A program made the translations under genes and the position numbers. The notes under the pieces were generated by a model that was not told the DNA's origin, ran no database searches, and saw nothing but the letters and a program-made list of their open reading frames with translations. Of a DNA stretch of 64,000 nt, positions 2,694 through 37,800 are shown piece after piece (position 1 is the first letter of the stretch; each line of letters starts with the position of its first letter). The stretch comes from a virus. The stretch lies in the IMG/VR virus record IMGVR_UViG_3300042882_000899, positions 50,961 to 114,960 of that record; one strand, given 5' to 3'.

Positions 2694-2719
2694 CTTCGAT
2701 AAAAGTTAAATGCTACACT
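2690..2719 (+). promoter_or_regulatory. Sigma70/SigA-type promoter
   Basis: TTGACT-N18-TACACT with TG extension. Confidence 0.5.
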
Positions 2720-2904
2720 TAGTTTGCTTTGTGGGGGGCTTACCCTGAAACTCAATATGTACCAGATAGTATCTGAGAATATATGTTCCAGGAATTGCTT
2801 TCTCTATCTTTCCAAAAAGAAAAAATTTGGGGGGTAGGGGGGCTTTCCTAAAATCTAATATCCCCAGATAAATCTATAAATACAAACAGAAAAGAAGGTG
2901 TATA

Positions 2905-3588
2905 GTGGATAATGGAATAGTCGACAAAGACAAAAACGTATACTTTTTGCATATTGCTGGTAATGGTGGAAGAGCTTTAAAAGAATATGTTTTAAATCCA
3001 TTGTTTGGTAAGCAATCTGATATAGTAGGAAAACATAACGGGTGGTCAGATTTTATTAATGATCAAACATATGTTATTTGCATATTAAGAGATCCTGTAA
3101 AGCATGCTTGCGGATTTTATCTTCACTTTGTATATAAAGAAAAAGAAGGAACTGATGTAAAGTCCCGATTCCTTGATTACTATAGAAATACAAAGCAGCT
3201 TCACAATTTTCAATCTCAAAATATACTTGTTTCAGGACAACATTTTAATTATGGGAATGGAAAACACTTTAATGAAGATCTAGCTGATACAGACTTAGAT
3301 CTACTTAACAGTAGAATTAAAAGAATAGATCTGCTTATAAGCCAAGATATGCTCCTTAATGACATTCAGCATGTCTCTAATGTTTTGGCTGAAAATTTAG
3401 ATCTACCAACAATCAAAATTAAAGAAGTTGACAAAACAAAATATTCAAATTATATGTCACGCAACTTGTATAAATCTCTTACAGAAGAAGAAAAACAGGA
3501 AATTCAAAATTTAAATAGTATTGATTATAAAATTTATAGTCAACTAAGATTAGAAGAAATAAAAAAACGGGGAGAGTACAAAAATTAA
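2905..3588 (+). CDS. Sulfotransferase-family (Sulfotransfer_2-like) protein
   Basis: YFLHIAGNGG resembles the FLHIPKTGG 5'-PSB loop; ILRDPV resembles the 3'-PB motif; C-terminal NxxDYxxY. Confidence 0.65.
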   Translation: MDNGIVDKDKNVYFLHIAGNGGRALKEYVLNPLFGKQSDIVGKHNGWSDFINDQTYVICILRDPVKHACGFYLHFVYKEKEGTDVKSRFLDYYRNTKQLHNFQSQNILVSGQHFNYGNGKHFNEDLADTDLDLLNSRIKRIDLLISQDMLLNDIQHVSNVLAENLDLPTIKIKEVDKTKYSNYMSRNLYKSLTEEEKQEIQNLNSIDYKIYSQLRLEEIKKRGEYKN

Positions 3589-6808: not shown

Positions 6809-7369
6809 CTAATTTTTAGATGGAAACTTGTCTAACCACTCTTTTGTTCGAGGAGTCAAACCTTTCCATGACGACCAATTTTGACCGCCATTGGTCATGT
6901 AATACGTTATCTCTGCGTTGATTGCTGGATCAAATAACGAATAGTTACTATCCAGTTTGAATTTTTCTTTACGATCATCACCTAGGTTGCCCAGCATGTT
7001 GATCTGAAAAATTCCATAGGAACTGTCTCCAGTTTTCCTGTTGCCGTTATAAGCCATTGGGCGTCCATTAGACTCCTTTTTAGCTACAGCCCACGCCATT
7101 TTAAGGGCGCTACCCTCAAAGCCTACAGCCTTGAGAAGTTCAACCAATTCTTTGTCCGTTAAAGATTCAGATGGTTTCCACACAGTATTGCTGAATTCCT
7201 CCAGCTTTTCCTTGTTAAGTTGTGCTTCGGTTTTTACATCTGGTTTTACAACCAGAGCAGACGCAGATTGAATTACTTCTGTTTGACCAGTAAATAAAAA
7301 CAACACTGCTACTGATATTGCAACGTAGTGATGTAGAACATCGCTAAGTTTTTCTTTTATATTCTCCAT
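6809..7369 (-). CDS. Lytic transglycosylase / lysozyme-like protein with N-terminal signal or TM segment
   Basis: AKKESNG catalytic Glu motif, SYGIFQIN, LFDPAINA, WSSW; start after GGAGG. Confidence 0.8.
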   Translation of the reverse strand: MENIKEKLSDVLHHYVAISVAVLFLFTGQTEVIQSASALVVKPDVKTEAQLNKEKLEEFSNTVWKPSESLTDKELVELLKAVGFEGSALKMAWAVAKKESNGRPMAYNGNRKTGDSSYGIFQINMLGNLGDDRKEKFKLDSNYSLFDPAINAEITYYMTNGGQNWSSWKGLTPRTKEWLDKFPSKN

Positions 7370-12925: not shown

Positions 12926-14503
12926 ATGGCAACAGTAAATAAAAACTTTAGAATTAAAAATGGTCTTATCGTTGAGGGTGCTACCGCTACCGTTAACGGT
13001 TTTGGTGTATTAACCAAGGCTCAGGCAGACCAAGACTACATTGTTGGTCTTATTGGTGGTACATCAACTTCAGCCAATACAGCAAATACTGTAGTAAAGC
13101 GTGACGCTAACGGAAACTTTGCCGCAGGAACAATTACTGCTACATTTGTTGGTAACCTTACTGGTGACGTAACAGGTACAGTTTCAAGTCTTTCAAACCA
13201 CGATACAGGAGACCTTGCAGAAGGAACTAACCTTTACTTTACAAATGATCGTGCAATAAGCGCAACAGCCGCATCATACGATGCAGCAGGCTCAGCAGCA
13301 TCAGCTCAGTCAGCAGCAATTACTGCAGCAGCAACAGATGCAACTACTAAGGTAGCAGCAGAAGCAGCACTTAGAGTATCAGGCGACGCAGCTTCAGTAT
13401 CAACCGCAGCAGCAGATGCAACATCTAAGGCAGATGCAGCCCAGGCAGCAGCAATCTCAGCAGCAGCAGCAGATGCAACATCTAAAGCAGATGCAGCCCA
13501 GGCAGCAGCAATCTCAGCAGCAGCAACAGACGCTACTACAAAGGCTAACGCAGCTCAGGCAGCAGCAATCTCAGCAGCAGCAACAGACGCTACTACAAAG
13601 GCTAACGCAGCACAAGCAGCAGCAATCTCAGCAGCAGCAGAAGCAGCTGGAACAGCAATTGCAACCGCAGTAGACGGTCTTGTTGACGGAGCACCAGCAC
13701 TTCTTAATACATTAAATGAATTGGCAGCAGCAATTAATGATGATGCTAATTACACAACAACTATTACAACAGCTCTAGGAACAAAAGCACCACTTGCTTC
13801 ACCAGAACTTACTGGTGTACCTACAGCACCGACTGCAGCAGCAGATACTAATACAACTCAAATTGCTACAACAGCATTTGCTAAGGCAGAAGCAGACGCA
13901 GCTCAGGCAGCAGCAGAAGCAACTGCAGCATCAGATGCAACTACTAAGGTAGCAGCAGAAGCAGCACTTAGAGTATTAGGCGACGCAGCTTCAGTATCAA
14001 CCGCAGCAGCAGATGCAACATCTAAGGCAGATGCAGCTCAAGCAGCAGCAATATCAGCAGCAGCAACTGATGCCACTACAAAGGCTAACGCAGCTCAAGC
14101 AGCAGCAGAATCCACAGCGGCAGCAGCTAATACAGCTCAGCAAAATGGAACTACATCATTTACAGCAATTAATTACAACGATGTCGCTAAGCAAGTTGCG
14201 GCAACAACTGGAAATATTGCGGTAGCAGCAGAAACAACAGCTATCTCATGGGTGGCAGCAGATTACAGAAGCGCTAAGTTTGTAGTCAAGGTAAAAAATG
14301 GTGTACATACTCAGGTCTCAGACCTAGTAGTTACCCTTGATACAGCTAACAACGTAGCAGTTTCTGAATATGGAATTACATATTCAAACGGAACAGAACT
14401 AGCTGCAGTAACAGCAGATTACTCTGGATCAGATGTAAGAATTAGAGTAACTCCAGCAAACGCTAACACAGAAGTTGTCGTTGTTGGAACATTAATTAAA
14501 TAA
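12926..14503 (+). CDS. Ala-rich coiled-coil fibre protein
   Basis: 19-aa repeats AAATDATTKANAAQAAAIS; fibre motifs APALLNTLNELAAAIND and LTGVPTAPT...TQIATTAF. Confidence 0.75.
   Translation: MATVNKNFRIKNGLIVEGATATVNGFGVLTKAQADQDYIVGLIGGTSTSANTANTVVKRDANGNFAAGTITATFVGNLTGDVTGTVSSLSNHDTGDLAEGTNLYFTNDRAISATAASYDAAGSAASAQSAAITAAATDATTKVAAEAALRVSGDAASVSTAAADATSKADAAQAAAISAAAADATSKADAAQAAAISAAATDATTKANAAQAAAISAAATDATTKANAAQAAAISAAAEAAGTAIATAVDGLVDGAPALLNTLNELAAAINDDANYTTTITTALGTKAPLASPELTGVPTAPTAAADTNTTQIATTAFAKAEADAAQAAAEATAASDATTKVAAEAALRVLGDAASVSTAAADATSKADAAQAAAISAAATDATTKANAAQAAAESTAAAANTAQQNGTTSFTAINYNDVAKQVAATTGNIAVAAETTAISWVAADYRSAKFVVKVKNGVHTQVSDLVVTLDTANNVAVSEYGITYSNGTELAAVTADYSGSDVRIRVTPANANTEVVVVGTLIK
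13315..14110 (+). repeat. Intragenic 57-nt tandem repeats and a duplicated block
   Basis: GCA-rich units; the block ...GATGCAACTACTAAGGTAGCAGCAGAAGCAGCACTTAGAGTAT... occurs near 13337 and 13934. Confidence 0.8.
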
Positions 14504-14572
14504 TTAAATAAGAAGGTTATGGGGTTCCTTTTAAAAACCCCACCAAAACACTTAGGGGATATGTGAACTTAA

Positions 14573-14938
14573 ATGGCAACAGAGAATAAGAATTTTAAAG
14601 TAAAGAACGGACTCAATGTAGCAGGTACTGCCACATTTGAGTCTAACGTTGTTTTAGGAGAAACACCCCTTAGATTTGATACAACAACAAATAAGCTTCA
14701 AATTCAGCTAAATGGAACATGGGTTCCAATAGCTTTTAATTCAGAAATTCCAGATCCATCCACTCAAATTGGGTTTATGGATATTGGCTTGGCTATAGAC
14801 TATAATGGTCAGCCAATATATACGCTTCAAGCAAATGGAGTCAGCCCTGCTGGAACAAGCAAGTTTGTAGATGGCGGATCTCCAACATCAACAGATGCAG
14901 ATATCTCAATAATATTTGATTCTGGAGTTATATCTTAA
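14573..14938 (+). CDS. Small virion structural protein
   Basis: N-terminus MATENKNFKVKNGL is paralogous to the 12926 protein; C-terminal VDGGSPTS. Confidence 0.65.
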   Translation: MATENKNFKVKNGLNVAGTATFESNVVLGETPLRFDTTTNKLQIQLNGTWVPIAFNSEIPDPSTQIGFMDIGLAIDYNGQPIYTLQANGVSPAGTSKFVDGGSPTSTDADISIIFDSGVIS

Positions 14939-14991
14939 AGCAATAAATGATACAATAAGCAGTATAAATAAAATATATAAGGGGTAATAAA

Positions 14992-17895
14992 ATGGCAACA
15001 GTAAGATTGCAGTTAAGAAGAGGCACAGCTTCACAATGGACCTCAGCAAATCCAATTTTGGCAGCAGGAGAGCTTGGAGTTGAGTCAGATACTAACCTCT
15101 TTAAGTTTGGTAACGGTTCAACAACTTGGACAGCTCTAGCTTATGCAAATAACTCAGATGTAGCGATTGGTGAAATCTCCCAAGACGCAATTAATAATGC
15201 CCTATCTATGGGCGCAGGTCTTTCAAAGACGTATGATGACGGCGCAAATACAATTACAATTACAGTAGATTCAACAATTGCAACAAAAACATACGCAGAT
15301 GATGCTGTTACAGCACATCAAAATGATACAACATCTGTACACGGAATAACTAACACAGAAGATATTGTGTACTTGACAGGCGCTCAAACCCTTAGCGGAA
15401 AAACACTTTCTAACGTTGTATTGAGTGGAACACCTACAGCTCCTACTCAAGCTGCAAACGATAACTCTACTAAAATTGCAACAACAGAATATGTGCAAAC
15501 AGAGCTTGCTGATCTTATAGGCACAGCCCCAGCTTTGCTAGATACACTTGGCGAATTGTCAGACGCACTTAACGATAATGAAAACTATGCAGCAGCAATG
15601 ACATCAACAATCACAGGTATCAACAACAGCTTGGCAACTAAATTACCTACAACAGATTTTACCGCACACCTTACTGATACAACAGATGTCCATGGAATTT
15701 CAGACACAGCAAATCTAGTTTATACATCTGACTCAAGACTTTCAGATAACAGAACTCCAGTAAATGGATCTGTAGTAGCAGCATCAATGGCAACAGATTC
15801 AATAACAACACAAAGCATTACAGATGCCGCCGTAACAGGACAAAAAATTGCAGACGATGCAGTAACTGCAGCTAAAATTGCTGCTTCAGCAGTTGGAACT
15901 TCAGAGATTGCAGACGATGCAGTAACTGCAGATAAGATTGCCACAGGGTCAGTTGGTTCTTCAGAGATTGCATCAAATGCTGTCGGTTCAGACCACATTG
16001 CAGCATCTGCAGTTGGAACTTCAGAGATTGCAGACGATGCAGTAACTGCAGATAAAATTGCTGCCTCAGCAGTTGGAACTTCAGAGATTGCAGATTATGC
16101 AGTAACTGCAACTAAGATTGCCACAGGGTCAGTTGGTTCTTCAGAGATTGCATCAAATGCTGTCGGTTCAGACCACATTGCAGCATCTGCAGTTGGAACT
16201 TCAGAGATTGCAGACCTAAATATTACAACAGCAAAGATTAACGATTCAGCAGTTACAGAAGGCAAAATTGCAGGACTGGCAGTTACAGAAGGCAAAATTG
16301 CAGATGGCTCAGTATCTACTGTTAAAATTGCAGATTCTGCAGTAACTTCAGGGAAAATTGCAAACGGAACAATTGTTGATGCAGACATAAATGCAACAGC
16401 AGCAATTGCAATAACAAAAATTGACGGGCTTGGAACATCACTTGATTCTAAGTTAGCTTCATCAACTGCAGCTTCAACATACGCTCCAATTGCTAGCCCA
16501 ACATTTACTGGAACAGTTTCTGGTGTTACTAAATCTCACGTAGGTCTTGGAAATGTTGATAACACAGCAGATGCAGATAAGCCAGTTTCAACAGCTACAC
16601 AAACTGCACTTGATCTAAAGTCACCACTTGCTTCACCAACATTTACGGGTACTGTAACAACAGGACATGTTCTACCAGCAACAGACATTACATTTGACTT
16701 AGGCTCCCCTACTAAAATGTGGAGAGATATTTATGTCGGACCAGGATCCCTGTACGTTAACGGACAAAAAGTTCTTCAAACTGACGCAGGTGACGTTGTC
16801 ATTACTGCCGACGCTAATGAAAACTTGGCATTAAGAACTAGCGGAAGTGGTAACATTGAACTAGATCCAACAGGTGCTGGTACTGTAAGTATAAAAGGAC
16901 CAATGGTTATTGAGGCATCAGCTAACATAACAAGCGCAGATGGCAACGGAATTAACTTTGGAAGCACAGTTAATGTTGATGCCATTACAAGCAAAACCTT
17001 AAATACAGACTTATCGCTATCAGGAAATGGTACAGGAAAAGTTTACCTTAATGATAACGCAGAAGTAAATGGAAACCTTGTTGTTGGTGGAAACCTAACA
17101 GTAAGCGGAACAACTACAACTGTTAACAGCGAAACAATTTCTTTAGCTGACAACATTATTGACTTAAACAGCAACTTTACTACTGGAACTCCAACAGAGA
17201 ATGCAGGAATAAAAATTAAGCGTGGAGATTCTTCTGATGTTCAAATACGTTGGAATGAATCTACTGATAAGTGGGAGTTTACAAATGACGGAACAAACTA
17301 TTATTCAGTAGCAGGTCTTGAATCACCAACATTTACAGGTACTGTATCTGGTGTTACAAAGACAATGGTAGGTCTTGGAAATGTTGATAACACAGCAGAC
17401 ACAGCCAAGCCAGTTTCAACAGCTACACAAACTGCACTTGATGCAAAACTTGCTTCTGCAACAGCAGCAACAACTTATGCGCCAATTGCTTCACCAACTT
17501 TTACTGGAACAGTAACAGTTGCTGCAGCAGGAGTGGCATTTACAGATAAGACACAGACAAAGGCTGGCGTACCATCACTTACAACAATTGGAACAACTGT
17601 TTCGTCAAACACTACACTTGATCTACTTGGAACAGACGCAGCAGTTCGGGATTCATTAATTCCACTGTCTGGTGCAGTAAATATTAACTTTGAAGCAACA
17701 GGAAATGCAAAGTATTCAATCGGCTCTTCAATAAGCTTCTATCAGTCTTCAAGTACTGGTGCAAATATAACTGGAACTGGTGGAATAACAGTTCTTTCAA
17801 CTCCAGGCGCAACATTAAGAGCACTAAATTCATCAGTAACAGCAACAAAAATTGCAGCTACAACCTGGTTGTTAGCTGGAGACTTGAAGGCATAA
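14992..17895 (+). CDS. Long fibre protein with Mtd-N / hyaluronidase-N-type N-terminal domain
   Basis: QLRRGTASQWTSANPILAAGELGVESDT...GNGSTTW; 10-aa repeats (VTADKIADDA); VGLGNVDNT repeats; SPTFTGTV repeats. Confidence 0.8.
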   Translation: MATVRLQLRRGTASQWTSANPILAAGELGVESDTNLFKFGNGSTTWTALAYANNSDVAIGEISQDAINNALSMGAGLSKTYDDGANTITITVDSTIATKTYADDAVTAHQNDTTSVHGITNTEDIVYLTGAQTLSGKTLSNVVLSGTPTAPTQAANDNSTKIATTEYVQTELADLIGTAPALLDTLGELSDALNDNENYAAAMTSTITGINNSLATKLPTTDFTAHLTDTTDVHGISDTANLVYTSDSRLSDNRTPVNGSVVAASMATDSITTQSITDAAVTGQKIADDAVTAAKIAASAVGTSEIADDAVTADKIATGSVGSSEIASNAVGSDHIAASAVGTSEIADDAVTADKIAASAVGTSEIADYAVTATKIATGSVGSSEIASNAVGSDHIAASAVGTSEIADLNITTAKINDSAVTEGKIAGLAVTEGKIADGSVSTVKIADSAVTSGKIANGTIVDADINATAAIAITKIDGLGTSLDSKLASSTAASTYAPIASPTFTGTVSGVTKSHVGLGNVDNTADADKPVSTATQTALDLKSPLASPTFTGTVTTGHVLPATDITFDLGSPTKMWRDIYVGPGSLYVNGQKVLQTDAGDVVITADANENLALRTSGSGNIELDPTGAGTVSIKGPMVIEASANITSADGNGINFGSTVNVDAITSKTLNTDLSLSGNGTGKVYLNDNAEVNGNLVVGGNLTVSGTTTTVNSETISLADNIIDLNSNFTTGTPTENAGIKIKRGDSSDVQIRWNESTDKWEFTNDGTNYYSVAGLESPTFTGTVSGVTKTMVGLGNVDNTADTAKPVSTATQTALDAKLASATAATTYAPIASPTFTGTVTVAAAGVAFTDKTQTKAGVPSLTTIGTTVSSNTTLDLLGTDAAVRDSLIPLSGAVNINFEATGNAKYSIGSSISFYQSSSTGANITGTGGITVLSTPGATLRALNSSVTATKIAATTWLLAGDLKA
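15850..16220 (+). repeat. 30-nt (10-aa) imperfect repeats with larger duplications
   Basis: TCAGAGATTGCA recurs at a 60-nt period (15901, 15961, 16021, 16081, 16141, 16201). Confidence 0.85.
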
Positions 17896-17917: not shown

Positions 17918-18814
17918 ATGTCAAAAAATATAGGAAGAAGATCTTCCGCACAAGATAACTTTATTGGACCAAATCCAGTAACAAATGTTACAGCATCAGA
18001 CTACTTAAATGGAGCTAATAACCAAAGAGCTTTTAATGATGGTGCAATTAGCGTTTCATGGTCAGCTCCAGTAGGAGGTAATACTCCTACTGGCTACAAG
18101 GTATATGAAGCTGGTGTTCTAAAAGCAACAGTCCCATTTGGAACAAACACAGCTTTGATAACTGGGTTAGGTTCAAATACATCTCACACATATTCAGTTT
18201 CATCTTATGACTCCTATTTAGACAATTCATCAAATGCAGTTGCGGCAAATGCAGCAACTGCTACAACAGTTCCAGGCACACCAGCCAACCCAACAGCAAC
18301 AGCTGGTGTTGATTTAGACACAATTGCGTGGGTTGTTCCAGCAAATGGTGGAAAAGTCATTATCGATATTTATATTGAATCGAATGAGCCAACGCCAAAA
18401 AATAAAACTGTTACAACAGATGCCAATGGAAGCACAACTATTGCAAATGAAGCAAATACAGCACAGGCCTACAAGGTAAGAGCAAGAAATGCTAACGGTT
18501 CAGGAGCCTTTTCAGGATTCTCTAATACTGTTACTACTCAAGCACCTTCATTCTTTAGCCCACCGTTCTTCCCACCTGGCTTCTTTAGCCCACCGTTCTT
18601 CCCACCTGGCTTCTTTAGCCCACCGTTCTTCCCACCTGGCTTCTTTAGCCCACCGTTCTTCCCACCAGTATTCTTTAGCCCACCATTCTTTCCACCTGGC
18701 TTCTTTAGCCCACCGTTCTTCCCACCTGGCTTCTTTAGCCCACCGTTCTTCCCACCTGGCTTCTTTAGCCCACCAGGATTTGGTGGCGGAGGCTGGAACT
18801 TGAGAGCTTACTAA
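17918..18814 (+). CDS. Fibronectin type III domain protein with C-terminal Pro/Phe tandem repeat
   Basis: Two Fn3-like domains (VSWSAP..GG..PTGYKV; PANGG...YKVRARNANGSGAFS), then (FFSPPFFPPG)7 and FGGGGWNLRAY. Confidence 0.8.
   Translation: MSKNIGRRSSAQDNFIGPNPVTNVTASDYLNGANNQRAFNDGAISVSWSAPVGGNTPTGYKVYEAGVLKATVPFGTNTALITGLGSNTSHTYSVSSYDSYLDNSSNAVAANAATATTVPGTPANPTATAGVDLDTIAWVVPANGGKVIIDIYIESNEPTPKNKTVTTDANGSTTIANEANTAQAYKVRARNANGSGAFSGFSNTVTTQAPSFFSPPFFPPGFFSPPFFPPGFFSPPFFPPGFFSPPFFPPVFFSPPFFPPGFFSPPFFPPGFFSPPFFPPGFFSPPGFGGGGWNLRAY
18551..18774 (+). repeat. 30-nt tandem repeat x7.5 (TTCTTTAGCCCACCGTTCTTCCCACCTGGC)
   Basis: Read directly; near-identical units, no spacers. Confidence 0.95.
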
Positions 18815-18844
18815 TATGAAAAAAACTATAAATGAGGTATATCT

Positions 18845-19249
18845 ATGAGTAAAAATTATGCAATCTTGTCTTTAGGTAAAGTTATTGATAAGATAGAAGT
18901 AGAAAACGTAGAAGAAGATGCAAATAGAGTAGACAGATTTTCTGAAATATTCAACTCTAATTTCTTCTGCAAGGATATAACTGATCACAAGAAAGTAAAG
19001 CTAAACTCAATATGGGATGGCCAAGCATTTTCTGAATCGGATGAGGAAAGAAAAGAGGTTGCACCATATTCAGTAGCCTTTGTTTCTGACAATATAATCA
19101 AAGCAGTTGTTAGAGTGTATACAGCAAAAAGGTATAACCTCTATAAAGAAGCAGAGGTCAATGGGGTTTCTGCAATTGATGTTACCGACATGGATGTTAC
19201 AGCTATAAAAACTGGAATGTCATGGGACGGTACCTCTTTTACAGAATAG
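18845..19249 (+). CDS. Hypothetical protein with duplicated WDGxxF domain (possible fibre-assembly chaperone/adaptor)
   Basis: Two similar halves ending IWDGQAFSE and SWDGTSFTE. Confidence 0.6.
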   Translation: MSKNYAILSLGKVIDKIEVENVEEDANRVDRFSEIFNSNFFCKDITDHKKVKLNSIWDGQAFSESDEERKEVAPYSVAFVSDNIIKAVVRVYTAKRYNLYKEAEVNGVSAIDVTDMDVTAIKTGMSWDGTSFTE

Positions 19250-19261
19250 GAAGTCCTAACA

Positions 19262-19957
19262 TTGAGTAAAGATATTTTAAAGCATGAAATATCTCCTGGT
19301 CTATGGGTTTATAAAAATCAAATAGATAAAAGCATTATTGATGACGTCGAAGGCTTTTTGTCTCAGTACGAAGAAGACTTTGAGTGGCGTGAAGCTACTG
19401 TTGGATATGATGTAAAAGTTCCTTCGTATAGAGACTGCGTAGATTTTAAAATACAAAAACATGAAATGCCAAATATGCCAAAAAGCAGAAAAGATCTAAA
19501 TGATATTTGGCAAAAAGCATACGATATGCAAATTGATGCTGTTAAAGATTACTGCAAGGTTTACAATATTGACATGCAGTATTGGGAAGCCATGAACTTT
19601 ATTAAGTATGGCGAAGGCCAGCATTTCCAAGAGCACTCAGATCATGGATTCTCATACATAGCAACAGTTTCATTAGTGTCTTATCCAAATGATAACTACG
19701 AAGGCGGGGAGCTATATTTCCCTAAACTTAACTTAACAATAACTCCAGAGGCTGGAGATATTGTTATATTCCCATCAACATATTTATTCTCACACAGAGC
19801 AATGCCAGTTAAATCAGGAGTCAAGTATTCAATCGTAACAATGCTGGACTATAATGATAATACACATAACCAAGAGTTTGATATTCTTAGAATGAAAAGG
19901 ACTAATTCTGCTTCTGCAAGAGAAAGTGCAAAAAGTGGAAATAATAAAAGCCTATAA
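19262..19957 (+). CDS. Prolyl 4-hydroxylase-like 2OG-Fe(II) oxygenase
   Basis: KYGEGQHFQEHSD, YEGGELYFP, HRAMPVKSGVKYS. Confidence 0.9.
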   Translation: MSKDILKHEISPGLWVYKNQIDKSIIDDVEGFLSQYEEDFEWREATVGYDVKVPSYRDCVDFKIQKHEMPNMPKSRKDLNDIWQKAYDMQIDAVKDYCKVYNIDMQYWEAMNFIKYGEGQHFQEHSDHGFSYIATVSLVSYPNDNYEGGELYFPKLNLTITPEAGDIVIFPSTYLFSHRAMPVKSGVKYSIVTMLDYNDNTHNQEFDILRMKRTNSASARESAKSGNNKSL

Positions 19958-20651
19958 AACTAAAGAAGGATATTCTGAGCTAAACACACTGCCAGTAAAA
20001 AGAGACTGGATGGATGCAACTTGGCAAAAGCATGCCTACCATTGTTTCCCAGTAACTTTAACAAATACAATGGGGTGGTACTTAAGTTTTCCAGAAGATA
20101 TAACATTTATTTGGGACGGAGTTTCAAATTTTGATCCTTCTCATGTAAAGATATTATCTGGAGAAAAGTATGCGTATTCTGGTAGAGCAAATGGAACAAT
20201 AAGCTTTAATACAGGCATAAAGTTTAAAACTGAAAAAGATGTAACTCTATTAACTATGCCAGCACCTAATTTTTTTATTGATGGTGCTTCATGTTTTACA
20301 ACATTAATTAGCACATCATTTTTTAGAGCTGACTTGCCAGTAGCATGGATGATTACTTCTCCTAATAAAAAAATTACTATTCCTGCAGGCCACCCCATAT
20401 GCTCAATAATTCCAGTAAAATTAAATGATCTTAATAATTCTGAGATTAGAATTGAAAAAGAGCCAGAGGATGAAGTAGTTTCTCAAAAAGAGTTATACGA
20501 ATATTCTATGGCAATTAATGAGATAAATAAAAAATTTAGTTGGTCTGATTTTTACAGAAATGGGATTGACCACAAAGGCAACGATCTTGGCCAACATGAT
20601 GTAAAGTCTTTAAAGCTAAAAGTCATACAGGAATCTCCTGGTGATATTTAA
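19926..20651 (+). CDS. DUF6065-like protein
   Basis: RDWMD...HAYHCFPV..TN.MGW motif recalled for this family; embedded among oxygenase genes. Confidence 0.6.
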   Translation: MQKVEIIKAYKTKEGYSELNTLPVKRDWMDATWQKHAYHCFPVTLTNTMGWYLSFPEDITFIWDGVSNFDPSHVKILSGEKYAYSGRANGTISFNTGIKFKTEKDVTLLTMPAPNFFIDGASCFTTLISTSFFRADLPVAWMITSPNKKITIPAGHPICSIIPVKLNDLNNSEIRIEKEPEDEVVSQKELYEYSMAINEINKKFSWSDFYRNGIDHKGNDLGQHDVKSLKLKVIQESPGDI

Positions 20652-20675
20652 TATGAAATATGGTATATTATAGAT

Positions 20676-21422
20676 ATGGAAATAGTTAATAAAGGAATTA
20701 TGGGCGGAGGAAGAGCCCCTATATCAATAACGCCATCTGGATTCTTTGGCGACTCAATTGATAATATTGTTGAGCTGGAAAATTTTATAACGGAAGAAGA
20801 GCAGCAGAGACTTATTAATTTTGCACTAACTAATAAAATCTGGGATAAAACTGAGACTCATGTCGATGAAGACGGTCTCGTCCTTTATGACGCAAATATT
20901 TGGGAAGATAGAGTTTGCACTGCAGACTCATTAAAAAGATCTGACCCAGGAATAATTGATTTGTTATGGGATATGATTGATAGACTAAAAGTAGAAGTTG
21001 ATAAATTTTTTGATGTTAATGTTCAAGCCACTGGGCCAGCAATTGTTAGGTGGCCAGTTGGAGCAAGACAAGAACCTCACGCAGACAAAGAGTTTCATAC
21101 TGGAGAAGAAGAAGGAAGACCAAATGATTTTCCTTATTATGACATAGCTGGACTATTTTATTTTGACGATAATTATGAAGGTGGAGAGCTATATTTTCCA
21201 AGACATGGTATTGAATTTAAGCCAAAGCCTAGGGCAGCTTATTTTTTCCCAGGAGATAAATATTATGCTCATGGCGTTAGACCAGTAAAGTCTGGAAATA
21301 GATTCACTGCCCCATTTTTTTGGACGATTGTAAAGCATACTGGAGAAAAACAACCTCCGCAAGATTATTCAGATCAGTTTAAGTCGCCATCATGGCAAAA
21401 GCTTTATGGAGATAGGGGTTAA
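20676..21422 (+). CDS. 2OG-Fe(II) oxygenase
   Basis: QEPHADK, YEGGELYFP, HGVRPVKSGNRFT; ATG 6 nt after TGGTATATT. Confidence 0.9.
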   Translation: MEIVNKGIMGGGRAPISITPSGFFGDSIDNIVELENFITEEEQQRLINFALTNKIWDKTETHVDEDGLVLYDANIWEDRVCTADSLKRSDPGIIDLLWDMIDRLKVEVDKFFDVNVQATGPAIVRWPVGARQEPHADKEFHTGEEEGRPNDFPYYDIAGLFYFDDNYEGGELYFPRHGIEFKPKPRAAYFFPGDKYYAHGVRPVKSGNRFTAPFFWTIVKHTGEKQPPQDYSDQFKSPSWQKLYGDRG

Positions 21423-21425
21423 AAA

Positions 21426-22271
21426 ATGCATAGTTTAAATATAGTTGACGATATAGATTCTTTAGACTGGACAGAGTTGCTTCCAGGTGTAATACTTTAT
21501 AGAGGAATGTTAAAGGATCCAGACCTCGCATATAATATAATGATGCGCTCAGAATCTTCAGAAGAAAGTAATTTTTTTCAACAATGGACACCATGGGCTC
21601 AATACGGAACTTACACACAGGCTAAAGAACAGCCTATGATTGAGTTAGCAGAAAAAAATGAAATTTTTAATGAAGAAAAAGCACTATATGAAGAAATTGC
21701 AAATTCTTACGATAAGGCAATATCGCATTATTTTAAACATACTGGAATTGAAATTCCAGAAGGCGCAAGGTATAGCGGACAGTCTTGGTGTAAGTATTTC
21801 AACTTGATTGACACATTAAAAAATAAAATGACAATGCAGTATCATACTGATTTTATTATTTCTCAAAAAGATATGCCTGGGGAAAAATTCCATACAACCT
21901 GCACTTTTTATATTAATGACAACTATAATGGTGGCGATATAGAGTTTTTTGTAGACGGTAAGTTTGTAAACCATAAACCATCTGCTGGAGACCTGCTAGT
22001 ATTCCCATCAGGAGAACCTTTTTATCATGGGGTAAAAACAATACCAGATGGCAATAAGTTCTTTATCAGAAACTTTGTAATGTTTGATTATGATGGCTCT
22101 AAAGAGTGGCTAGCAAATCAAAAGAGATATGGCGCATATAAGTGGGCAAAGCAAGAAATTGAAAGAATTGCAAATGACGATCCAAGAAATATGATCTATA
22201 TAAGAGATAACGAAGTTATATCTTATGAAGAAATTATGGACATAAAGATTGACGGGGGAATATACAATTGA
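21426..22271 (+). CDS. 2OG-Fe(II) oxygenase (P4H-like)
   Basis: HTD, YINDNYNGGDIEF, HGVKTIPDGNKFF. Confidence 0.88.
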   Translation: MHSLNIVDDIDSLDWTELLPGVILYRGMLKDPDLAYNIMMRSESSEESNFFQQWTPWAQYGTYTQAKEQPMIELAEKNEIFNEEKALYEEIANSYDKAISHYFKHTGIEIPEGARYSGQSWCKYFNLIDTLKNKMTMQYHTDFIISQKDMPGEKFHTTCTFYINDNYNGGDIEFFVDGKFVNHKPSAGDLLVFPSGEPFYHGVKTIPDGNKFFIRNFVMFDYDGSKEWLANQKRYGAYKWAKQEIERIANDDPRNMIYIRDNEVISYEEIMDIKIDGGIYN

Positions 22272-23047
22272 ACCTAATTAAAGTTAGAGACAATGAGCAC
22301 CCAGTATATTTATACGAAGAGTTTTTGACTAAAGAGGAGTGCGCTGGAATTATTAAGATGTTTAATAATCTTATAGCCAGCGGAGATTTTGAATGGCACC
22401 CAATCTCTTTTTATGAGTCATATGCTTATAACATGCCTAACCAGTTAACAGATGACAAGAATAAGCTATCTCAATGGTATGCAGATGCTGGTCTGCCAGA
22501 CAATTTCCTGGACGATCTAGAGGAAAAGTTTAAAAATGCAGCTCGTGAAATCATAGGGGGGGAAGCATATAAAATAAGTTTTCATAGTCAAAAATGGATA
22601 CCTGGAGCTTATGCAGCTTTTCATTCAGATAACAGCTATGACGGTAAGCCAAGCGCATTTGAAAGAAGTAGATACGCAGGATTCCTTTATTTAAACGATG
22701 ACTTTGACGGCGGTGAGCTTAATTTTAAAAACTTTGATTTGAGCGTTAAGCCAAAAACAGGAATGTTTGCTATTTTTGATGGAGGTCATGAGAATACCCA
22801 TGAGGTTACTCCAGTATTTAAAAGCGACAGATACACTGTCGGATCATTCTGGGATGATCGGTCAGAGGAAGATTACCCACAAGAAACTAGAGACAGATGG
22901 GCAGAAGAAATTGAAGAGACTAGAAAAAAGCAAAAAGTAGAGCAAGAAGAGTGGAAAGAAATACGAGATAGCGGAAAAAGAAGAACACCAGATGGCAGAG
23001 AATACGATGCAGTCTTAGCAGAAAGCGGAGAAGTCGATGGAGATTAA
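22268..23047 (+). CDS. 2OG-Fe(II) oxygenase
   Basis: HSDN, YLNDDFDGGELNF, HEVTPVFKSDRYT. Confidence 0.9.
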   Translation: MNLIKVRDNEHPVYLYEEFLTKEECAGIIKMFNNLIASGDFEWHPISFYESYAYNMPNQLTDDKNKLSQWYADAGLPDNFLDDLEEKFKNAAREIIGGEAYKISFHSQKWIPGAYAAFHSDNSYDGKPSAFERSRYAGFLYLNDDFDGGELNFKNFDLSVKPKTGMFAIFDGGHENTHEVTPVFKSDRYTVGSFWDDRSEEDYPQETRDRWAEEIEETRKKQKVEQEEWKEIRDSGKRRTPDGREYDAVLAESGEVDGD

Positions 23048-23729
23048 AGAAGTTCAACCAAGATCAATGTACACAATGTTTGATATTGTTTACCACGATA
23101 GAGGGATTGTGTATTTTGAAAATGTTATTAGCTATCCTCAAAAGCTTTTAGATACGATTGAAGATCTTGATGCAAATCCAAAATCTCATGCTGGAATACC
23201 TAAATGGAATGCTTGGGGAGCAAGCAACGATGAAAAATATGGTTATGGAATTCAAAAGTTTATAGACACATCAAAAAGGTATTTGAACTCGGATGACGAT
23301 TTTCTAAACAAGCAAGTACTTTATGTTGTAAACAGCTTAATTATGGCACCAGAAATGTGTGCAAAAAGATATGCCGAAATTATGCGTAGAGATGCATCTA
23401 ATATTCAAAAGATAGACAGTACGCCAGAACAGGTTAAAATGGGGCTAGACTATATTAAGGTAGCAAAGTACGATACAGGCAAGGGGATGGGGCCACACTG
23501 CGATGCAGAAGATCCATCTGGTACTGGCGAAAATCTGAAGTACTCCCTTGTTTGCTACCTTAATGATGACTACGAAGGTGGAGAAATTTACTTTAAAAAC
23601 CAAGATATTAAGATTAAGCCAAAGGCTGGAAGCTTGGTATTATTCCCTTCAGTTCACCCGTACCTACATGAATCTTTACCTGTTACAAAAGGTAACAAGA
23701 TTATGTTTACGACTCACTGGATGGTTTAG
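23037..23729 (+). CDS. 2OG-Fe(II) oxygenase (P4H-like)
   Basis: MGPHCD, YLNDDYEGGEIYF, HESLPVTKGNK. Confidence 0.9.
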   Translation: MEIKEVQPRSMYTMFDIVYHDRGIVYFENVISYPQKLLDTIEDLDANPKSHAGIPKWNAWGASNDEKYGYGIQKFIDTSKRYLNSDDDFLNKQVLYVVNSLIMAPEMCAKRYAEIMRRDASNIQKIDSTPEQVKMGLDYIKVAKYDTGKGMGPHCDAEDPSGTGENLKYSLVCYLNDDYEGGEIYFKNQDIKIKPKAGSLVLFPSVHPYLHESLPVTKGNKIMFTTHWMV

Positions 23730-25595: not shown

Positions 25596-25940
25596 ATGGA
25601 CATAAAAAGAATTAATGCTCAAATGAAATCTGGCGATACCAGGTTAGGAGTCTATGTCTGGGAGATGCCAGATGGAAGATGGGTCGGAGACGAAGACAAC
25701 AACTTCCTATCAATAGCATCAATGATTGGTAATAAAGAAAGAATTGCTCTGTTAGCATCAGCAGTTGCTCACTATGGAATTGATGTCGGCCAGCCTAAGT
25801 TTATTGAAGGAAGCAGGCAGATTGACGATGAAGAATTTGAATATCAAAAGCAAAGACTTAGATGGGGACTCACTCCAGATCCTTTGGATATAAGTGTTCA
25901 CAAAGAAGAAATGGCTAAACTGAATGGTGGTAAAAAATGA
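25596..25940 (+). CDS. Hypothetical protein upstream of portal
   Basis: ORF track; ATGA-coupled to the portal gene. Confidence 0.75.
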   Translation: MDIKRINAQMKSGDTRLGVYVWEMPDGRWVGDEDNNFLSIASMIGNKERIALLASAVAHYGIDVGQPKFIEGSRQIDDEEFEYQKQRLRWGLTPDPLDISVHKEEMAKLNGGKK

Positions 25941-27517
25941 TTGAGTACGATGAAGACACTGTTATGAATAACATAGAGGTTTCTAACGTGGCAGACTGGA
26001 TGAGATTTAACAATCCAACTACTCAGAAATCAGATGACGCATTTGATGTAGAGGGCGAAGACATTTTAAAGCTTTCTGGTCTAGGTGCCTCATTTAGAAG
26101 AAAAGTTTCCAGAGATCTTCAGAAATCTTTTGTAGGAAAAGATGGAGCAGTAAGCCAGCAGCTTCAGCATCAGCAAGCAGTTAGTGGCTATGCCACATTT
26201 GATCTAATTCAACCAGAATATAATTTAGATTATTTATCAACAATTTACGAAATTTCTCCATACAACTATGCTGCTATAAATGCAAAGGTGGCAAACATTG
26301 TTGGCCTAGGATTTGATTTTGTTGAATCAAGAAAAACGACTGATGCACTTGATGAAATTAGTGATGAGAAGCAATTAGAAAGAGCCCGAAAGAAGTTAAA
26401 TAGAATTAAACAAGATTTAAACAAGTGGCTTGAAGATTGCAATGAAGACGAAACTTTTAAAGAAACACTTATAAAGTTCTACACTGATATAGAGGCTACT
26501 GGTAATGGCTACCTAGAGGTCGGTAGAACGACAACTGGCAAGATAGGATACATCGGACACATCCCTTCAAAGACAATGCGTGTAAGGCGCCTTAGAGACG
26601 GTTTTATCCAGCTTCTTTATGGCAAGGCTGTTTTCTTTAGAAACTTCGGGGACACAGAAACAGTAAACCCTATAGCAGGTCAAGAAGATAGGCCTAATGA
26701 AATTATTCATTTAAAAAAGTACACGCCAAAGAATAATTATTATGGAATTCCAGATATTATTGCTGCCCAGAATGCTATGGCTGGTAACGAGTTTGCTGGC
26801 AAGTACAACCTGGACTACTTTGAAAACAAGGCAGTGCCTAGATACATTATTACGGTAAAGGGAGCAAAACTTTCTCCAGAATCTGAAAGAAAGCTGCTTG
26901 AGTTTTTCCAGGTGGGACTAAAGGGAAAAAACCACAGATCTCTGTATATACCACTTCCACCAGACTCACCAGACTCAAAGACTGAGTTTAAGATGGAGCC
27001 AATTGAGGCTGGCTCACAAGAGTCTTCATTTAACATTTATCGTCAATCAAATAGAGACGAAATTCTAATGGCACATAGAGTTCCAATTAATAAAATTGGC
27101 ACACCAGCAGGCATTAATTTGGCTGCAGCCAGAGACGCAGATAAGACATTTAAAGAGCAGGTATGTCGTCCAGCTCAGGAAAACCTAGAAAAGAAATTAA
27201 ATAAAATAATTCAAGAAATGACTGATGCCATGGAGCTTAAGTTTAATGAATTAAGCTTGACAGATGCAGACACTCAGTCTAAGATAGATGAAAGATATCT
27301 TAGATTCCAGGTAATTACTCCAAATGAAATTAGAGTAAGAATGGGAATGGTTCCACGAGAAGGTGGGGATGTCCCAGTAGACCTTGCAGCACAGGCAGCC
27401 GAAATTAAGGCTCAGGCTACTCAAAGTAGAACCCGTGACCAAGAAAGATCAGCAAATTCCCCAGATAAATCTGGGGAGGGCAGAAATGCAAAGGGAGATG
27501 GAAGACAAGTCAACTAG
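25937..27517 (+). CDS. Portal protein
   Basis: GNGYLEV, NEIIHLK...YYGIP, YFENKAVP, AHRVP, ITPNEIR motifs of HK97/PBSX-like portals. Confidence 0.92.
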   Translation: MIEYDEDTVMNNIEVSNVADWMRFNNPTTQKSDDAFDVEGEDILKLSGLGASFRRKVSRDLQKSFVGKDGAVSQQLQHQQAVSGYATFDLIQPEYNLDYLSTIYEISPYNYAAINAKVANIVGLGFDFVESRKTTDALDEISDEKQLERARKKLNRIKQDLNKWLEDCNEDETFKETLIKFYTDIEATGNGYLEVGRTTTGKIGYIGHIPSKTMRVRRLRDGFIQLLYGKAVFFRNFGDTETVNPIAGQEDRPNEIIHLKKYTPKNNYYGIPDIIAAQNAMAGNEFAGKYNLDYFENKAVPRYIITVKGAKLSPESERKLLEFFQVGLKGKNHRSLYIPLPPDSPDSKTEFKMEPIEAGSQESSFNIYRQSNRDEILMAHRVPINKIGTPAGINLAAARDADKTFKEQVCRPAQENLEKKLNKIIQEMTDAMELKFNELSLTDADTQSKIDERYLRFQVITPNEIRVRMGMVPREGGDVPVDLAAQAAEIKAQATQSRTRDQERSANSPDKSGEGRNAKGDGRQVN

Positions 27518-34469: not shown

Positions 34470-34807
34470 ATTTAGCCGCTTTAGAGGGACAAGTTTTTCT
34501 TTTAGGACATTGGAAGAATTACGAAGATTTAGAAGAAAATTTATCAATGCCAGAATTGATTCAGACCCTAACAGCGATGAATCAAAAAGAACATAACCAG
34601 AGAAAGTTTGCAGCATCACTAAAAGGAATCCAATTAGATGATGATGCAGAAGAAGAAAAAGAAAAAGGTTCTACCTTTGAAGATATCCAAAGAAGAGCTC
34701 TTGGGATTAAAGCATCAGCAGATGATGTTGTTAGTTTACAAGGACCCTTCGCAGCACAAGCTGGATTTGGAATTGGCGCAGGGTTAGGATACTCTAGGAG
34801 TAATTAG
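34137..34807 (+). CDS. Tail assembly chaperone gpGT produced by -1 frameshift (about 223 aa)
   Basis: C CCA AAC heptamer at 34427-34433; the -1 frame is open from there through track ORF 34547..34807. Confidence 0.8.
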
Positions 34808-37800
34808 TGGCTGACGAACAAATTGTAACCTCCATAGTCGCCAAAGCCGACTTGTCTAGCCTTGTGTCTGAAGTACACAGGGCTAGTGCTAGTCTTCAGC
34901 AACTCCAAAGAGAATTACTTGCTTCCAACAAGGCAATTTCTTCTTCAACAAAATTAGCAAACAATTTATTTAGAGACACACTAACTGGAAGCGGACAATT
35001 CTCCAGCCACTTTGTAAACCTTAATTCAGATGTTGATAAGTTCGGTAAGAATTTAGATGCAGGCAGATTAAAGCTTAAAAACTATTTCCAAACTTTTAGA
35101 GAGCATGCTACTACTCAAAAGGGAATGATCAGAGAACTTGCCAAAGAGCAAGTTATGCTTCAAAACTCAGTCCTGCAACCTTTAGGCAGAAATGCTCAAG
35201 GTTTAATGCAGTACAACGTCATGATCCCAAGAGGATTAGATGCTGTAAAGAATAGCGCACAGCTAGCTCGTATGGAACTGCAAATAATGAATCGTGCACT
35301 ATCTGAAGGAGCAGGATCTTTAATTAACTGGGGTAAGAATACTCAGTGGGCAGGTCGTCAGCTTACAGTTGGTCTTACAGTACCATTAACAATGTTTGGT
35401 GCCGCAGCTTCAAAAGCTTTTAGAGAAGCAGACCAAGAGCTCGTAAGACTTACAAAGGTTTATGGTGGACTAGCAGCAACATCTGCAACAGATTTAAAAG
35501 CAATTAGAGAAGAAGTTATTCAGACAGCAAAGTCTTTATCTCAAACAATGGGTGCTTCTTTTAAAGATACAATTGCTTTAGGTGCAGATATTGCAGCAAC
35601 TGGAAAGATGGGTAACGAGCTGCTTGGCTCAATAGAAGAAACAACAAGACTATCTATTCTTGGTGAAGTAGACAGACAAGATGCAATGAAGGCTACACTT
35701 TCAATTCAAACAGCATTTAAGCAGAACACAGAACAACTTACAGAATCAATTAACTTCCTTAACGCAGTTGAAAACCAGACATCTACAACTCTTAACGATT
35801 TAGTAGAAGCTATTCCAAAAGCTGGTCCAGTTATACAGCAACTAGGCGGAAGCATTGAAGACCTAGCTCTCTATATGACAGCAATGAGAGAGGGTGGTAT
35901 TAATGCATCTGAAGGAGCAAACGCATTAAAGTCAGGACTTGCTTCTTTAATTAACCCAACAAAGCAAACAGTTGGAATCATGTCAGACTTCGGTATAGAT
36001 GTAATGGGAATGGTTGCCAAAAATACTGGAAACACAACTGGCATGTTGATGGATCTACAAACTGCTCTTAATAAGCTAGACCCATTGAGTAAAGCAAGAG
36101 CGCTAGAGCAAATGTTTGGAAAGTTCCAGTTTGCAAGAATGAGCGCACTGCTCAATAACCTTGGAAAAGAAGGAAGCCAGACGCTTCAGGTTATGGATTT
36201 AATGAAAGCAAGTACTTCAGATTTGGCTGGTATTGCAGAGCGAGAATTAGGAATGATTACAGAATCTGCATCTGGTAAATACAGAAAGGCTATGGAAAGC
36301 CTAAAGGCAGAGCTAGCAAGCGTAGGAGAAGAGTTCCTCGGTATAGGAACTAAGATTCTAAATGCAGCATCAAAGATTCTGAATTTCTTTACTGAGTTGC
36401 CAACACCAATTAAAAAAGCTCTTACATTTATGGCAGGATTCACAGCATTAGTTGGTCCACTTATTATGTTAACTGGTGTGCTTGCAAACTTCTTCGGCTA
36501 TATAACAAAGGGAATAGTCCAGCTTAGATCTTTCTTTATGAGAGCAAACGGATGGAAAATGCTCACCCCAGAAATTATTGCTGCTCAAAAAGCAGCAGAG
36601 ATGGTTGAGAATGCGTTCTATTCAGATGCAGCAGCAGCTCAAGTTTTACACAACGCATTACAAAAGCTTGTTTTAGATTATCAAAACCTGCAAGCAGCTT
36701 CAATGAAAAATGCAGTTCCTGTAAACCCAGGAGTTAGCACAGTTGATGGAAATGCAGTTGTTGCAGCTGGAAGAAGATTCGTAGACCCTAACGATCCGTA
36801 TGTAGGAGATCCTAATACTAGAGCAATGTCTCACATTAGACCAAGAGATATAAATAACCCAGCAACTATATTTGGCGGGGTACCAGGAGCTATTCCAGTT
36901 AATAGAGGAATATCAAGAACTCCACAAATGTACATGCATGATAGACTTCCAAATATTGAAGGTCTAACAAGCGTTAAGGGGATATCCACAGGAATTGTTC
37001 CAGGAGAAGCAGCTAAGTTCCACGCATTAATGGCAACACTTGGAATGCAAACTGAGCAAGAAGTTGCTACATTAAAGAAGACTATTGCTATGGGCGGAAC
37101 AGTAAGTAGAGAGCTATTAGATACATTTGATGACATACTTCCTATAACTCAAAGATTTGCAAATAGCGCAGCAGAGCAATCTGCATTAATTGTGCAACAA
37201 ATGAGAAATGCTGAAATTACTGTAGACCAAGCAAAGGCAAGAATACTTGCACTAAATGCACAGATAGAAGCAGAAATGGGATCTGCTGTAAGTGCATATG
37301 CAGTAGGCAGAGGACGTACATTAGATTTAACAAAAGCTCCAATGATGAATCAACCAGTTGTTGATGCAAATGGACAATTTACATTAAGAGATTTATATAA
37401 GAAAGAATCCAACAGGGCAGTCATGGAAGAGTTTGGAAGAGTTCGTGGAGTAAGAACATTTGGAGCTCCTTACAGCATTCAGACAACAAGAATGCCTAAG
37501 TTCAATGATGGTGGAGGAGTTGAGTCCTTTGGTCCAGGAAAGACAATGGTATCTGGACCATCTTCAATTAACTATGACGACAGGCTTGGTAGCGTTCCAA
37601 TCGGAGGTTATGTACTAAATCAGTCTGCTTCAATGGACCCAGCGAATGCCCCACTCGTTGAAATGGCTGCAGCTACATATGAAGACGGCGGAAAGATAAC
37701 AGCAGCACTTACTCCACGGGAAGTAGTGTTTGGTCCTAAGATTCAAAGAATGCCTGAGCTGTATGCAGCAGTAGATGCAGCAAATAGCGGATATAGTTTT

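Follow-up and report, generated by a model that had tools for sequence, protein, structure and literature searches.

Why a phage should place five divergent 2-oxoglutarate (2OG)-Fe(II) oxygenase genes directly behind the gene for a protein with a phenylalanine/proline repeat at its C-terminus is the question raised by bases 50961-114960 (64,000 nucleotides, here called the window) of IMG/VR record IMGVR_UViG_3300042882_000899, a 114,960 bp sequence that is 96% complete. The module in question comprises the repeat-tailed gene, whose product carries an Fn3 domain; a gene for a WDGxxF protein; and a cassette of five oxygenases (O1 to O5) and a DUF6065 protein, all on the + strand and separated by gaps of 3-30 bp or by short overlaps (Table 1). 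More than 200 related IMG/VR loci were gathered, and they establish that this module is real, conserved and common. The best reading we can offer, and a tentative one, is that the prolyl 4-hydroxylase (P4H)-like battery acts with DUF6065 to hydroxylate prolines in the Phe/Pro tail, as well as in tails of this sort that other virion proteins carry. The first-pass annotation of the window had listed the WDGxxF gene, the five oxygenases and DUF6065 correctly, but placed DUF6065 after the five oxygenases when it lies between O1 and O2.

The tail protein was described correctly at first pass as an Fn3 protein ending in (FFSPPFFPPG)7 and GGGG, and translation, Pfam and Tandem Repeats Finder all agree. 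Its fn3 match has E 1.7e-5 (25.4 bits against a cut-off of 25), and its C-terminus reads QAPS-(FFSPPFFPPG)x7, with unit 4 ending in V, and then FFSPPGFGGGGWNLRAY; what comes after the seven units is FFSPPGFGGGG-WNLRAY, and the chain stops 11 residues past the repeat. The underlying DNA repeat (period 30, 94% matches, score 413) is far beyond chance expectation. The tail is 40% Phe and presents both SPP and PPG contexts. Its reading frame is secure, because an Fn3 domain lies upstream and because in relatives the same frame enters a further domain. There are 160 homologues in the protein collection, and an aromatic/Pro tail is present in every sequence inspected, as FFxPP in 5-, 6- or 10-residue units, as FFPPFFPFFP-type tracts or, in one sub-clade, as FGFTPFG-type tracts. 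In about half of the relatives the tail runs into an extra domain of ~140-150 residues that starts C[IL]xEDT, often ends VVHNK, and has sub-threshold matches to Hint_2 and Intein_splicing; the remaining half, the window copy included, share the short conserved ending GGGxxxxRxY. In relatives, FFxPP tracts are found at the end of further putative virion proteins too, among them 800-residue Cys-rich proteins and, in locus L142, the orthologue of a 1232-residue tail-region protein of the window, with FFxPP units where the window copy has TIN/TVN. A literature search for FFxPP-type (FFAPP/FFSPP) repeats found no paper. One relative (L147:1253-2382) has a frameshift that splits the tail, such that the Fn3 open reading frame (ORF) enters the +1 frame (SLAHQDSLLHH...) and a separate 62-residue ORF holds the FFxPP units; this could be an assembly error or slippage inside the repeat.

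The oxygenases are secure members of PF13640: O1 to O5, together with a sixth gene elsewhere in the window (O6), score 30-58 bits against a gathering cut-off of 27. As noted at first pass, the iron-binding triad HxD...H is intact in all five, and the basic residue of the 2OG site, some 10 positions beyond the second His, is Lys in three of them (O1, O3, O5); it is Arg in O2 and O4. The triad is invariant in 68-80 distinct orthologues per paralogue (O1 n=80, O2 n=78, O4 n=73). The basic residue is likewise invariant in the orthologues of O1, O2 and O4, with one Lys-to-Arg exception in O3, and is divided in O5 between 45 Arg and 29 Lys (n=74). Because triad and basic residue are both conserved across orthologues, all five are predicted to have been retained as active enzymes. 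Collagen P4H (C-P4H), Chlamydomonas P4H (Cr-P4H) and the PBCV-1 enzyme vCPH carry Lys at the position that binds the 2OG C5 group. The lysines had been taken as a likeness to collagen, plant and algal P4Hs, but since the O5 orthologues are mixed this position is unreliable as a marker of P4H subgroup.

The nearest solved structures by sequence to O1 and O5 are the P4Hs of Bacillus anthracis and PBCV-1 (E 1e-5 to 1e-8), with O5 matching PDB entries 3itq, 5hv0 and 5c5t. O1 was the one oxygenase of the five to be modelled (AlphaFold, AF2; 31 sequences; predicted local distance difference test, pLDDT, 85), and the best Foldseek matches of the model are almost only protein prolyl hydroxylases, at E down to 5e-11 and TM-scores of ~0.6. 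They include Cr-P4H with (Ser-Pro)5 (3gze), PBCV-1 vCPH (5c5t), Pseudomonas PPHD with EF-Tu, PHD2, the B. anthracis enzyme BaP4H and human C-P4H-II, with entries 2jig, 4iw3 and 5hv0 also among the top matches. 'Prolyl-hydroxylase-like', the description they had been given from the letters, is thus a fair name for these predicted enzymes.

The DUF6065 protein scores 111.9 bits against PF19541, for which the cut-off is 26.6, and its predicted fold (AF2, pLDDT 86) is dUTPase-like. In VIA-align the 23 best rows are without exception members of the dUTPase/dCTP deaminase superfamily, dUTPases scoring Z 11.2-8.5 and the next row Z 4; Foldseek also returns dUTPases (E 2e-4), at 9-16% identity. The residues invariant in the family (R26, W28, Y38, C40, P42, N47, D58 and others) have no visible match to the five catalytic dUTPase motifs when compared by sequence only. 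A profile search recovered 1413 DUF6065 representatives, among which the domain is fused to PF13640 in four different proteins, to a Cupin_8/JmjC hydroxylase in an Allosphingosinicella metagenome-assembled genome (MAG), and to an Stf0 sulfotransferase. The oxygenase fusions argue for a joint action of DUF6065 and oxygenases, and for a cassette that forms a single functional unit with DUF6065 as the likely partner of its oxygenases. A literature search for DUF6065 found no paper.

When each oxygenase of the related loci is assigned to its best window paralogue, the order O1-DUF6065-O2-O3-O4-O5 is recovered in most of them; the occasional deviations are additional copies, two DUF6065-like genes in place of one, or a missing O3. 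The five are thereby resolved as separately conserved orthologue groups, a pattern that appears to fit a multi-step or multi-site process better than redundancy. Wherever upstream DNA is available the tail protein comes before the cassette, and vice versa, and this pairing holds down to ~35% identity of the Fn3 part. Oxygenase clusters occurring apart from repeat proteins in relatives had been named at first pass as evidence that would speak against a link between the two; in every locus with enough DNA they are adjacent. The assignment to a fibre cluster likewise stands, given the Mtd_N and tail-fibre PHROG matches of the gene directly upstream and the portal gene downstream. Nearly all related loci have homologues of the upstream fibre block (12926..17895) ahead of the tail protein, and the Laminin_G_3 gene that closes the module keeps its position as well. 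Scans for promoters and terminators found no signal above shuffled expectation that would mark operon limits; no terminator-like intergenic site lies between the fibre genes and the cassette, which we count in favour of the hydroxylation reading.

Under that reading the oxygenases would be made late, together with the virion proteins, and would hydroxylate prolines of the tail and perhaps of the similar tails on other virion proteins. The SPP and PPG contexts of the tail would resemble extensin and collagen substrates, each paralogue might take different positions, and hydroxylation could alter the stiffness or stickiness of the fibre appendage; in some relatives it might ready the tail for sulfation. 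A viral precedent is the PBCV-1 P4H, which hydroxylates Pro-Ala-Pro-Lys repeats (PMC3634087). That enzyme (A085R/vCPH, 5c5t) is a virus-encoded, monomeric, PF13640-type P4H and a top neighbour of both O1 and O5, from a virus that also encodes Pro-rich repeats; PBCV-1, however, is a eukaryotic giant virus with one enzyme and charged PAPK repeats that are not fused to a fibre-region Fn3 protein. The phage module has five or six conserved paralogues plus DUF6065 and an aromatic FFxPP tail, often followed by Hint. Cr-P4H (3gze), which hydroxylates Ser-Pro-rich cell-wall proteins of the extensin type, is what the O1 model matches best in Foldseek (E 5e-11). It shares the Lys of O1, O3 and O5, and takes extended peptides of the polyproline-II type as substrates, to which the SPP and PPG of the tail may be compared; the likeness is one of overall fold, at ~16% sequence identity and a TM-score of ~0.6. 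Extensins differ from the tail in being hydrophilic and glycosylated, whereas the tail is 40% Phe and the module has no glycosyltransferase.

The genes inserted between the tail gene and O1 differ by sub-clade, being the WDG protein in some, a Sulfotransfer_2 and an Asp_Arg_Hydrox-like gene in others, and elsewhere other pairs without assigned function. The Sulfotransfer_2 match is found in 13 of 13 members (E down to 6e-8; L080, L111, L062 and others), and the sub-clade that has these two genes is the one with a Cys...VVHNK Hint domain at the end of its tail protein, so that accessory genes seem to track the type of tail ending. The added sulfotransferase fits a pathway of hydroxylation followed by decoration. 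Iyer, Abhiman, de Souza and Aravind (2010) predicted hydroxylation and then sulfation of collagen-like and tail-collar proteins in bacterial hydroxylase-sulfotransferase operons (PMC2938197). Those beta-hydroxylase/phytanoyl-CoA hydroxylase/sulfotransferase operons also set oxygenases beside a repetitive surface or fibre-type protein as proposed substrate, a likeness that the accessory genes of the relatives extend; they differ in resting on prediction only, in having Gly-rich or collagen-like substrates, and in their sulfotransferase, which the window module lacks. The WDGxxF protein is limited to the sub-clade with short-tailed FFSPPFFPPG-type proteins. It has no Pfam or PHROG match, and its nearest named Atlas clusters are Caudo_TAP (0.77), a weak lead on which it may be a fibre-assembly-type helper.

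Table 1 Features of the module, its neighbours and the other oxygenase loci of the genome (window coordinates unless stated)
Feature	Position	Strand	Evidence or remark
Ala-rich repeat protein, 525 aa	12926..14503	+	ORF
121-aa protein	14573..14938	+	ORF
Tail-fibre protein, 967 aa	14992..17895	+	Mtd_N domain (Pfam), many tail-fibre PHROG matches
Fn3 protein with Phe/Pro tail, 298 aa	17918..18814	+	Pfam fn3
30-bp tandem repeat, 7.5 copies, encoding (FFSPPFFPPG)n	18551..18774	+	Tandem Repeats Finder
WDGxxF protein, 134 aa	18845..19249	+	Motifs WDGQAF, WDGTSF
O1 oxygenase, HSD...H...GVKY; H125, D127, H178, K188	19262..19957	+	PF13640, E 1.6e-13
DUF6065 protein	19926..20651	+	PF19541, E 4.4e-32
O2 oxygenase, HAD...H...GNRF; H135, D137, H199, R209	20676..21422	+	PF13640
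O3 oxygenase, HTD...H...GNKF; H140, D142, H201, K211	21426..22271	+	PF13640
O4 oxygenase, HSD...H...SDRY; H119, D121, H178, R188	22268..23047	+	PF13640
O5 oxygenase, HCD...H...GNKI; H154, D156, H211, K221	23037..23729	+	PF13640, E 6.7e-15
Laminin_G_3 (ConA-like) protein, 587 aa	23769..25532	+	Pfam; closes module before small gene and portal
Portal	25937..27517		After small gene
1232-aa tail-region protein, ending (TIN)9(TVN)15-TGGGG-Cys...AHNN (Hint-like)	51382..55080	+	Translation
O6, P4H-like oxygenase, Lys type	55092..55673	+	PF13640, E 2.7e-15
78-aa WDGESF protein and 78-aa Cys-rich DUF6171 protein, after O6	55733..56195	+	ORFs; DUF6171, E 1.8e-6
Three tandem PF13640 oxygenases, 337-362 aa	genome G000:C1 3741..6893 (outside window; L167)		RecA 2282..3286, SSB 6958..7350

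Several observations weigh against this reading. The genome holds 11 PF13640 genes in total: O1 to O5, O6, three between RecA and SSB, and two elsewhere. O6 directly follows the 1232-residue protein, whose TIN/TVN repeat is free of proline and leads into a Hint-like end (Hom_end_hint, E 4.6e-4, below threshold); before the repeat this protein has an Fn3 domain and about eight thrombospondin-like Cys-rich repeats (e.g. SAWSAYGSC). The O6 mini-module supports a rule of a repeat-tailed protein followed by an oxygenase, and does not support proline as the sole target; the WDGESF protein behind O6 is weakly similar to the WDGxxF protein of the module (E 0.038 over 27 residues). The RecA-SSB trio lies downstream of a PolIII-alpha fragment, and an alignment of the 11 paralogues shows that the C-terminal extension of O3 is common to these three. 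With O6 behind a Pro-free repeat and a further three oxygenases at the RecA-SSB site, the PF13640 family is not tied to Pro/Phe tails. One relative (L015) retains a full cassette with just 2.5 repeat units, and the repeat ranges in length from 1.5 units to more than 8, as a spacer under loose constraint would. Known targets of PF13640 enzymes further include EF-Tu, ribosomal proteins and small molecules. The proposal that the repeat is the dedicated substrate of the cassette is weakened by these paralogues, by O6 and by L015. Nor does the comparison with the core of a ribosomally synthesized and post-translationally modified peptide hold, since the repeat is the tail of a folded Fn3 protein and no leader, recognition element or release protease appears among the Pfam and PHROG matches of the module, though the system may function as tailoring of a substrate encoded next door; hydroxylation of Phe, glycosylation and cross-linking, also raised at first pass, are not supported.

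The strength of the tail-cassette association is limited in the same way: all of the related loci belong to one phage family with the same fibre genes, so that co-occurrence is mostly explained by conserved synteny through descent. A DNA-pattern scan of IMG/VR for FFxPPxFFxPPxFFxPP matched at least 120 stretches and revealed no independent lineage among the matches listed; nearly all of the 74 new loci carry fibre or tail-protein homologues of this family, and the rest are short fragments. The one contrast within the family comes from Pro-poor, FG-type tails, which occupy two well-supported places on the tree of the Fn3 part, both without the canonical O1-DUF6065 cassette and with 1-2 oxygenases retained instead of 5-6. 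If the oxygenase set co-varied with repeat composition such a contrast would be expected, and both of two pairs go in that direction, which are too few for a test; moreover, the FG modules of L057 and L067 resemble each other, and the two co-losses may be a single origin spread by recombination. In place of the cassette the FG-type relatives have genes of 190-240 residues (cluster c8), for which we found no Pfam match, no PDB profile match, and an hhalign probability of 5.6% to the oxygenase profile; a likeness to 2OG-FeII_Oxy_5 is at most conjectural.

The portal is 58-60% identical to those of Streptomyces BE-cluster siphophages such as StarPlatinum. The family is one of uncultured lake siphophages, probably with actinobacterial hosts. 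From its ribonucleotide reductase gene to its portal StarPlatinum has no fibre, tail-protein or oxygenase genes, and an unannotated 578-residue gene before the portal takes the position of the Laminin_G_3 gene. Megablast and tblastn searches with the region, the tail protein and DUF6065 against 50,697 isolated phage records returned nothing; among isolated phages relatives were found only via the portal and O1. Lake and other freshwater metagenomes from at least 10 studies contain near-identical DNA. Two freshwater RNA libraries include contigs that match the window at 90-95% identity and so stem from relatives; these cover 18745-23528, and a single one of 1.6 kb spans the end of the tail gene, WDG, O1 and DUF6065. 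They are a weak hint at expression, as DNA carry-over is possible, and stretches without cover carry no weight. Four DUF6065 homologues ~50% identical to that of the window occur on contigs binned as Bacteroidota MAGs (L285-L288), one of them 78 kb long. That binning conflicts with the actinobacterial host suggested by the portal; the contigs are probably those of phages, mis-binned by composition, and so give no clue to bacterial context or host.

The 11 paralogues scattered through the genome, three of them between RecA and SSB, are also the first argument for the alternative that survives best, albeit as an unlikely one: that the oxygenases are host-directed or metabolic, acting on EF-Tu, ribosomal proteins, nucleic acids, 2OG levels or a peptide-like metabolite, and are merely lodged in a permissive spot. 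The nearest isolate homologues of O1 are cyanophage genes, some beside UvsX, where cyanophages such as P-SSM4 carry an oxygenase; the EF-Tu hydroxylase PPHD is among the structural neighbours of O1; the predicted fold of DUF6065 is that of a nucleotide enzyme, the dUTPase; and the outgroup StarPlatinum lacks the whole insert, as it would an accessory island. Published proposals point the same way. Sullivan et al. (2010) listed 14 of 16 cyanomyophages as carrying multiple 2OG-Fe(II) oxygenases, for which they proposed roles related to 2OG, including its drawdown, or to DNA repair (PMC3037559), and Iyer et al. described in Syn9 gp41-gp54 tandem dioxygenases and a dUTPase-fold protein with a conserved Cys, for which they proposed synthesis of secondary metabolites (PMC2938197). 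The Syn9 array shares with the cassette its distinct tandem 2OG dioxygenases and its dUTPase-fold protein, DUF6065 having the invariant Cys40, and Syn9 gp43 aligns with the DUF6065 profile at a suggestive level (hhalign probability 43%, E 2.5e-4). By contrast, Syn9 also encodes tryptophan halogenases (gp41, gp42) and a JmjC/MINA member; Pfam matches between 18845 and 23729 of the window are to PF13640 and DUF6065 only, and neither the window cassette nor the related genes scanned yielded a tryptophan halogenase. Further against this alternative, the same five orthologue groups persist in fixed order beside the same structural neighbour across deep divergence, when morons usually turn over faster; the enzyme set shifts where the tail type shifts; and DUF6065 has no obvious dUTPase motifs and is fused to hydroxylases of the protein type.

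The position of the cassette inside the fibre-to-portal block is also compatible with the battery modifying other virion proteins, such as the Ala-rich or Mtd_N fibres, the LamG protein or, in relatives, a collagen-like S74 fibre, the tail protein being a mere neighbour. About half of the relatives have a collagen-like gene with Peptidase_S74 between O5 and LamG, the tail protein ahead of O6 has a proline-free repeat, and the Syn9 array, in this unrelated myophage, also lies just downstream of fibre and fibre-assembly genes, a position that counts for the hydroxylation reading as well, although no Pro/Phe tail was found in its fibre-region proteins. We nevertheless regard this as rather improbable: the collagen-like gene is absent from the window while the cassette is complete, GXY runs in the relatives are short, and the invariable neighbour of the cassette is the tail protein and no other fibre. 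A collagen-like substrate in this genome was itself considered and rejected, as it contains no GXY run of five or more triplets. Between its fibre genes and the dioxygenase array Syn9 has a gene for a 316-residue protein made nearly entirely of Gly runs (gp36; L289, 8856..9806), and gp38 and gp39 have Gly_rich_2 domains. Outside the window, the genome also encodes a 694-residue protein with a long (PTPEPTDE)n linker (G000:C1 19319..21403; L167/L168), a Pro-rich tract that could equally be a hydroxylase substrate.

With a DNA repeat that is 94% identical between units, and copy numbers from 1.5 to more than 8 among relatives that are 84-96% identical to the window protein over the aligned part, the tail could instead be an unmodified low-complexity spacer or sticky anchor that drifts by replication slippage, serves in relatives as linker to a self-cleaving Hint domain, and has nothing to do with the enzymes. 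The exchange of TIN/TVN for FFxPP at one position of the 1232-residue protein would be expected of interchangeable linkers, and the FG-type variants, which we take to resemble cohesive FG repeats, are a further lead. This too seems rather improbable to us, since tail type, the GGGxxxxRxY motif and Phe/Pro composition are conserved across the family and the change of enzyme set with tail type would be left unexplained.

Least probable of all is an elaborate version, a new kind of maturation pathway for virion appendages, in which position-specific hydroxylases turn an aromatic/Pro polymer on fibre-region proteins into a hydroxylated adhesive, with the dUTPase-fold protein as adaptor and sulfation in some relatives. 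Where relatives have Hint, a thioester would then form, leading either to cleavage of the protein or to covalent ligation of its polymer, with another virion protein or the host envelope as partner. The Fn3-protein relatives and the 1232-residue protein do resemble Hint/BIL (bacterial intein-like) proteins in having a domain with a Cys start and an HN end after a repeat and a Gly run; several relatives, however, are Cys-less or HN-less, autoprocessing is a prediction, and the window Fn3 protein carries no Hint domain, its chain ending GGGGWNLRAY.

Aquatic phages, above all cyanophages, carry many paralogues of 2OG-Fe(II) oxygenases, for which guesses at a role since 2007-2010 have been DNA repair, 2OG drawdown and secondary metabolites. 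The module described here offers a hypothesis that can be tested cheaply, with a defined peptide, (FFSPPFFPPG)n, five enzymes and one helper protein, and with natural controls in the relatives that combine a Pro-poor tail with another enzyme set and in the Pro-free repeat-Hint protein that has its own oxygenase in the same genome. If the hydroxylation reading were true, the module would provide the first case of a hydroxyproline-type modification on a virion protein of a bacteriophage, it would move genes now filed as auxiliary metabolic to structural maturation, and it would give a function to the DUF6065 family, with its more than 1400 representatives and its fusions to oxygenases in bacteria. 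If the adhesive/Hint version were true, the orphan 2OG oxygenases of aquatic phages might generally decorate virions and not serve metabolism. New here are the fold of DUF6065 and its fusions, the sorting of the cassette into orthologue groups, the comparison with an outgroup, the adjacency of the Syn9 array to fibre genes and the match of the O1 model to protein prolyl hydroxylases, as well as the Hint-like continuation in about half of the relatives, the occurrence of the tail on other virion proteins, and the sulfotransferase and Asp/Asn-hydroxylase-like genes in some of them.

Repeats also occur in the fibre genes upstream of the module. The gene for the Ala-rich protein (12926..14503) has a DNA tandem repeat of its own (57-bp unit, four copies; AAQAAAISAAA...), and a stretch of the Mtd_N fibre gene (15847..16215) consists of 60- and 180-bp tandem units that encode SEIADDAVTADKIA-type repeats. 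Further downstream, the window contains a very long ORF of the tape-measure type (34807..43212, 2801 residues).

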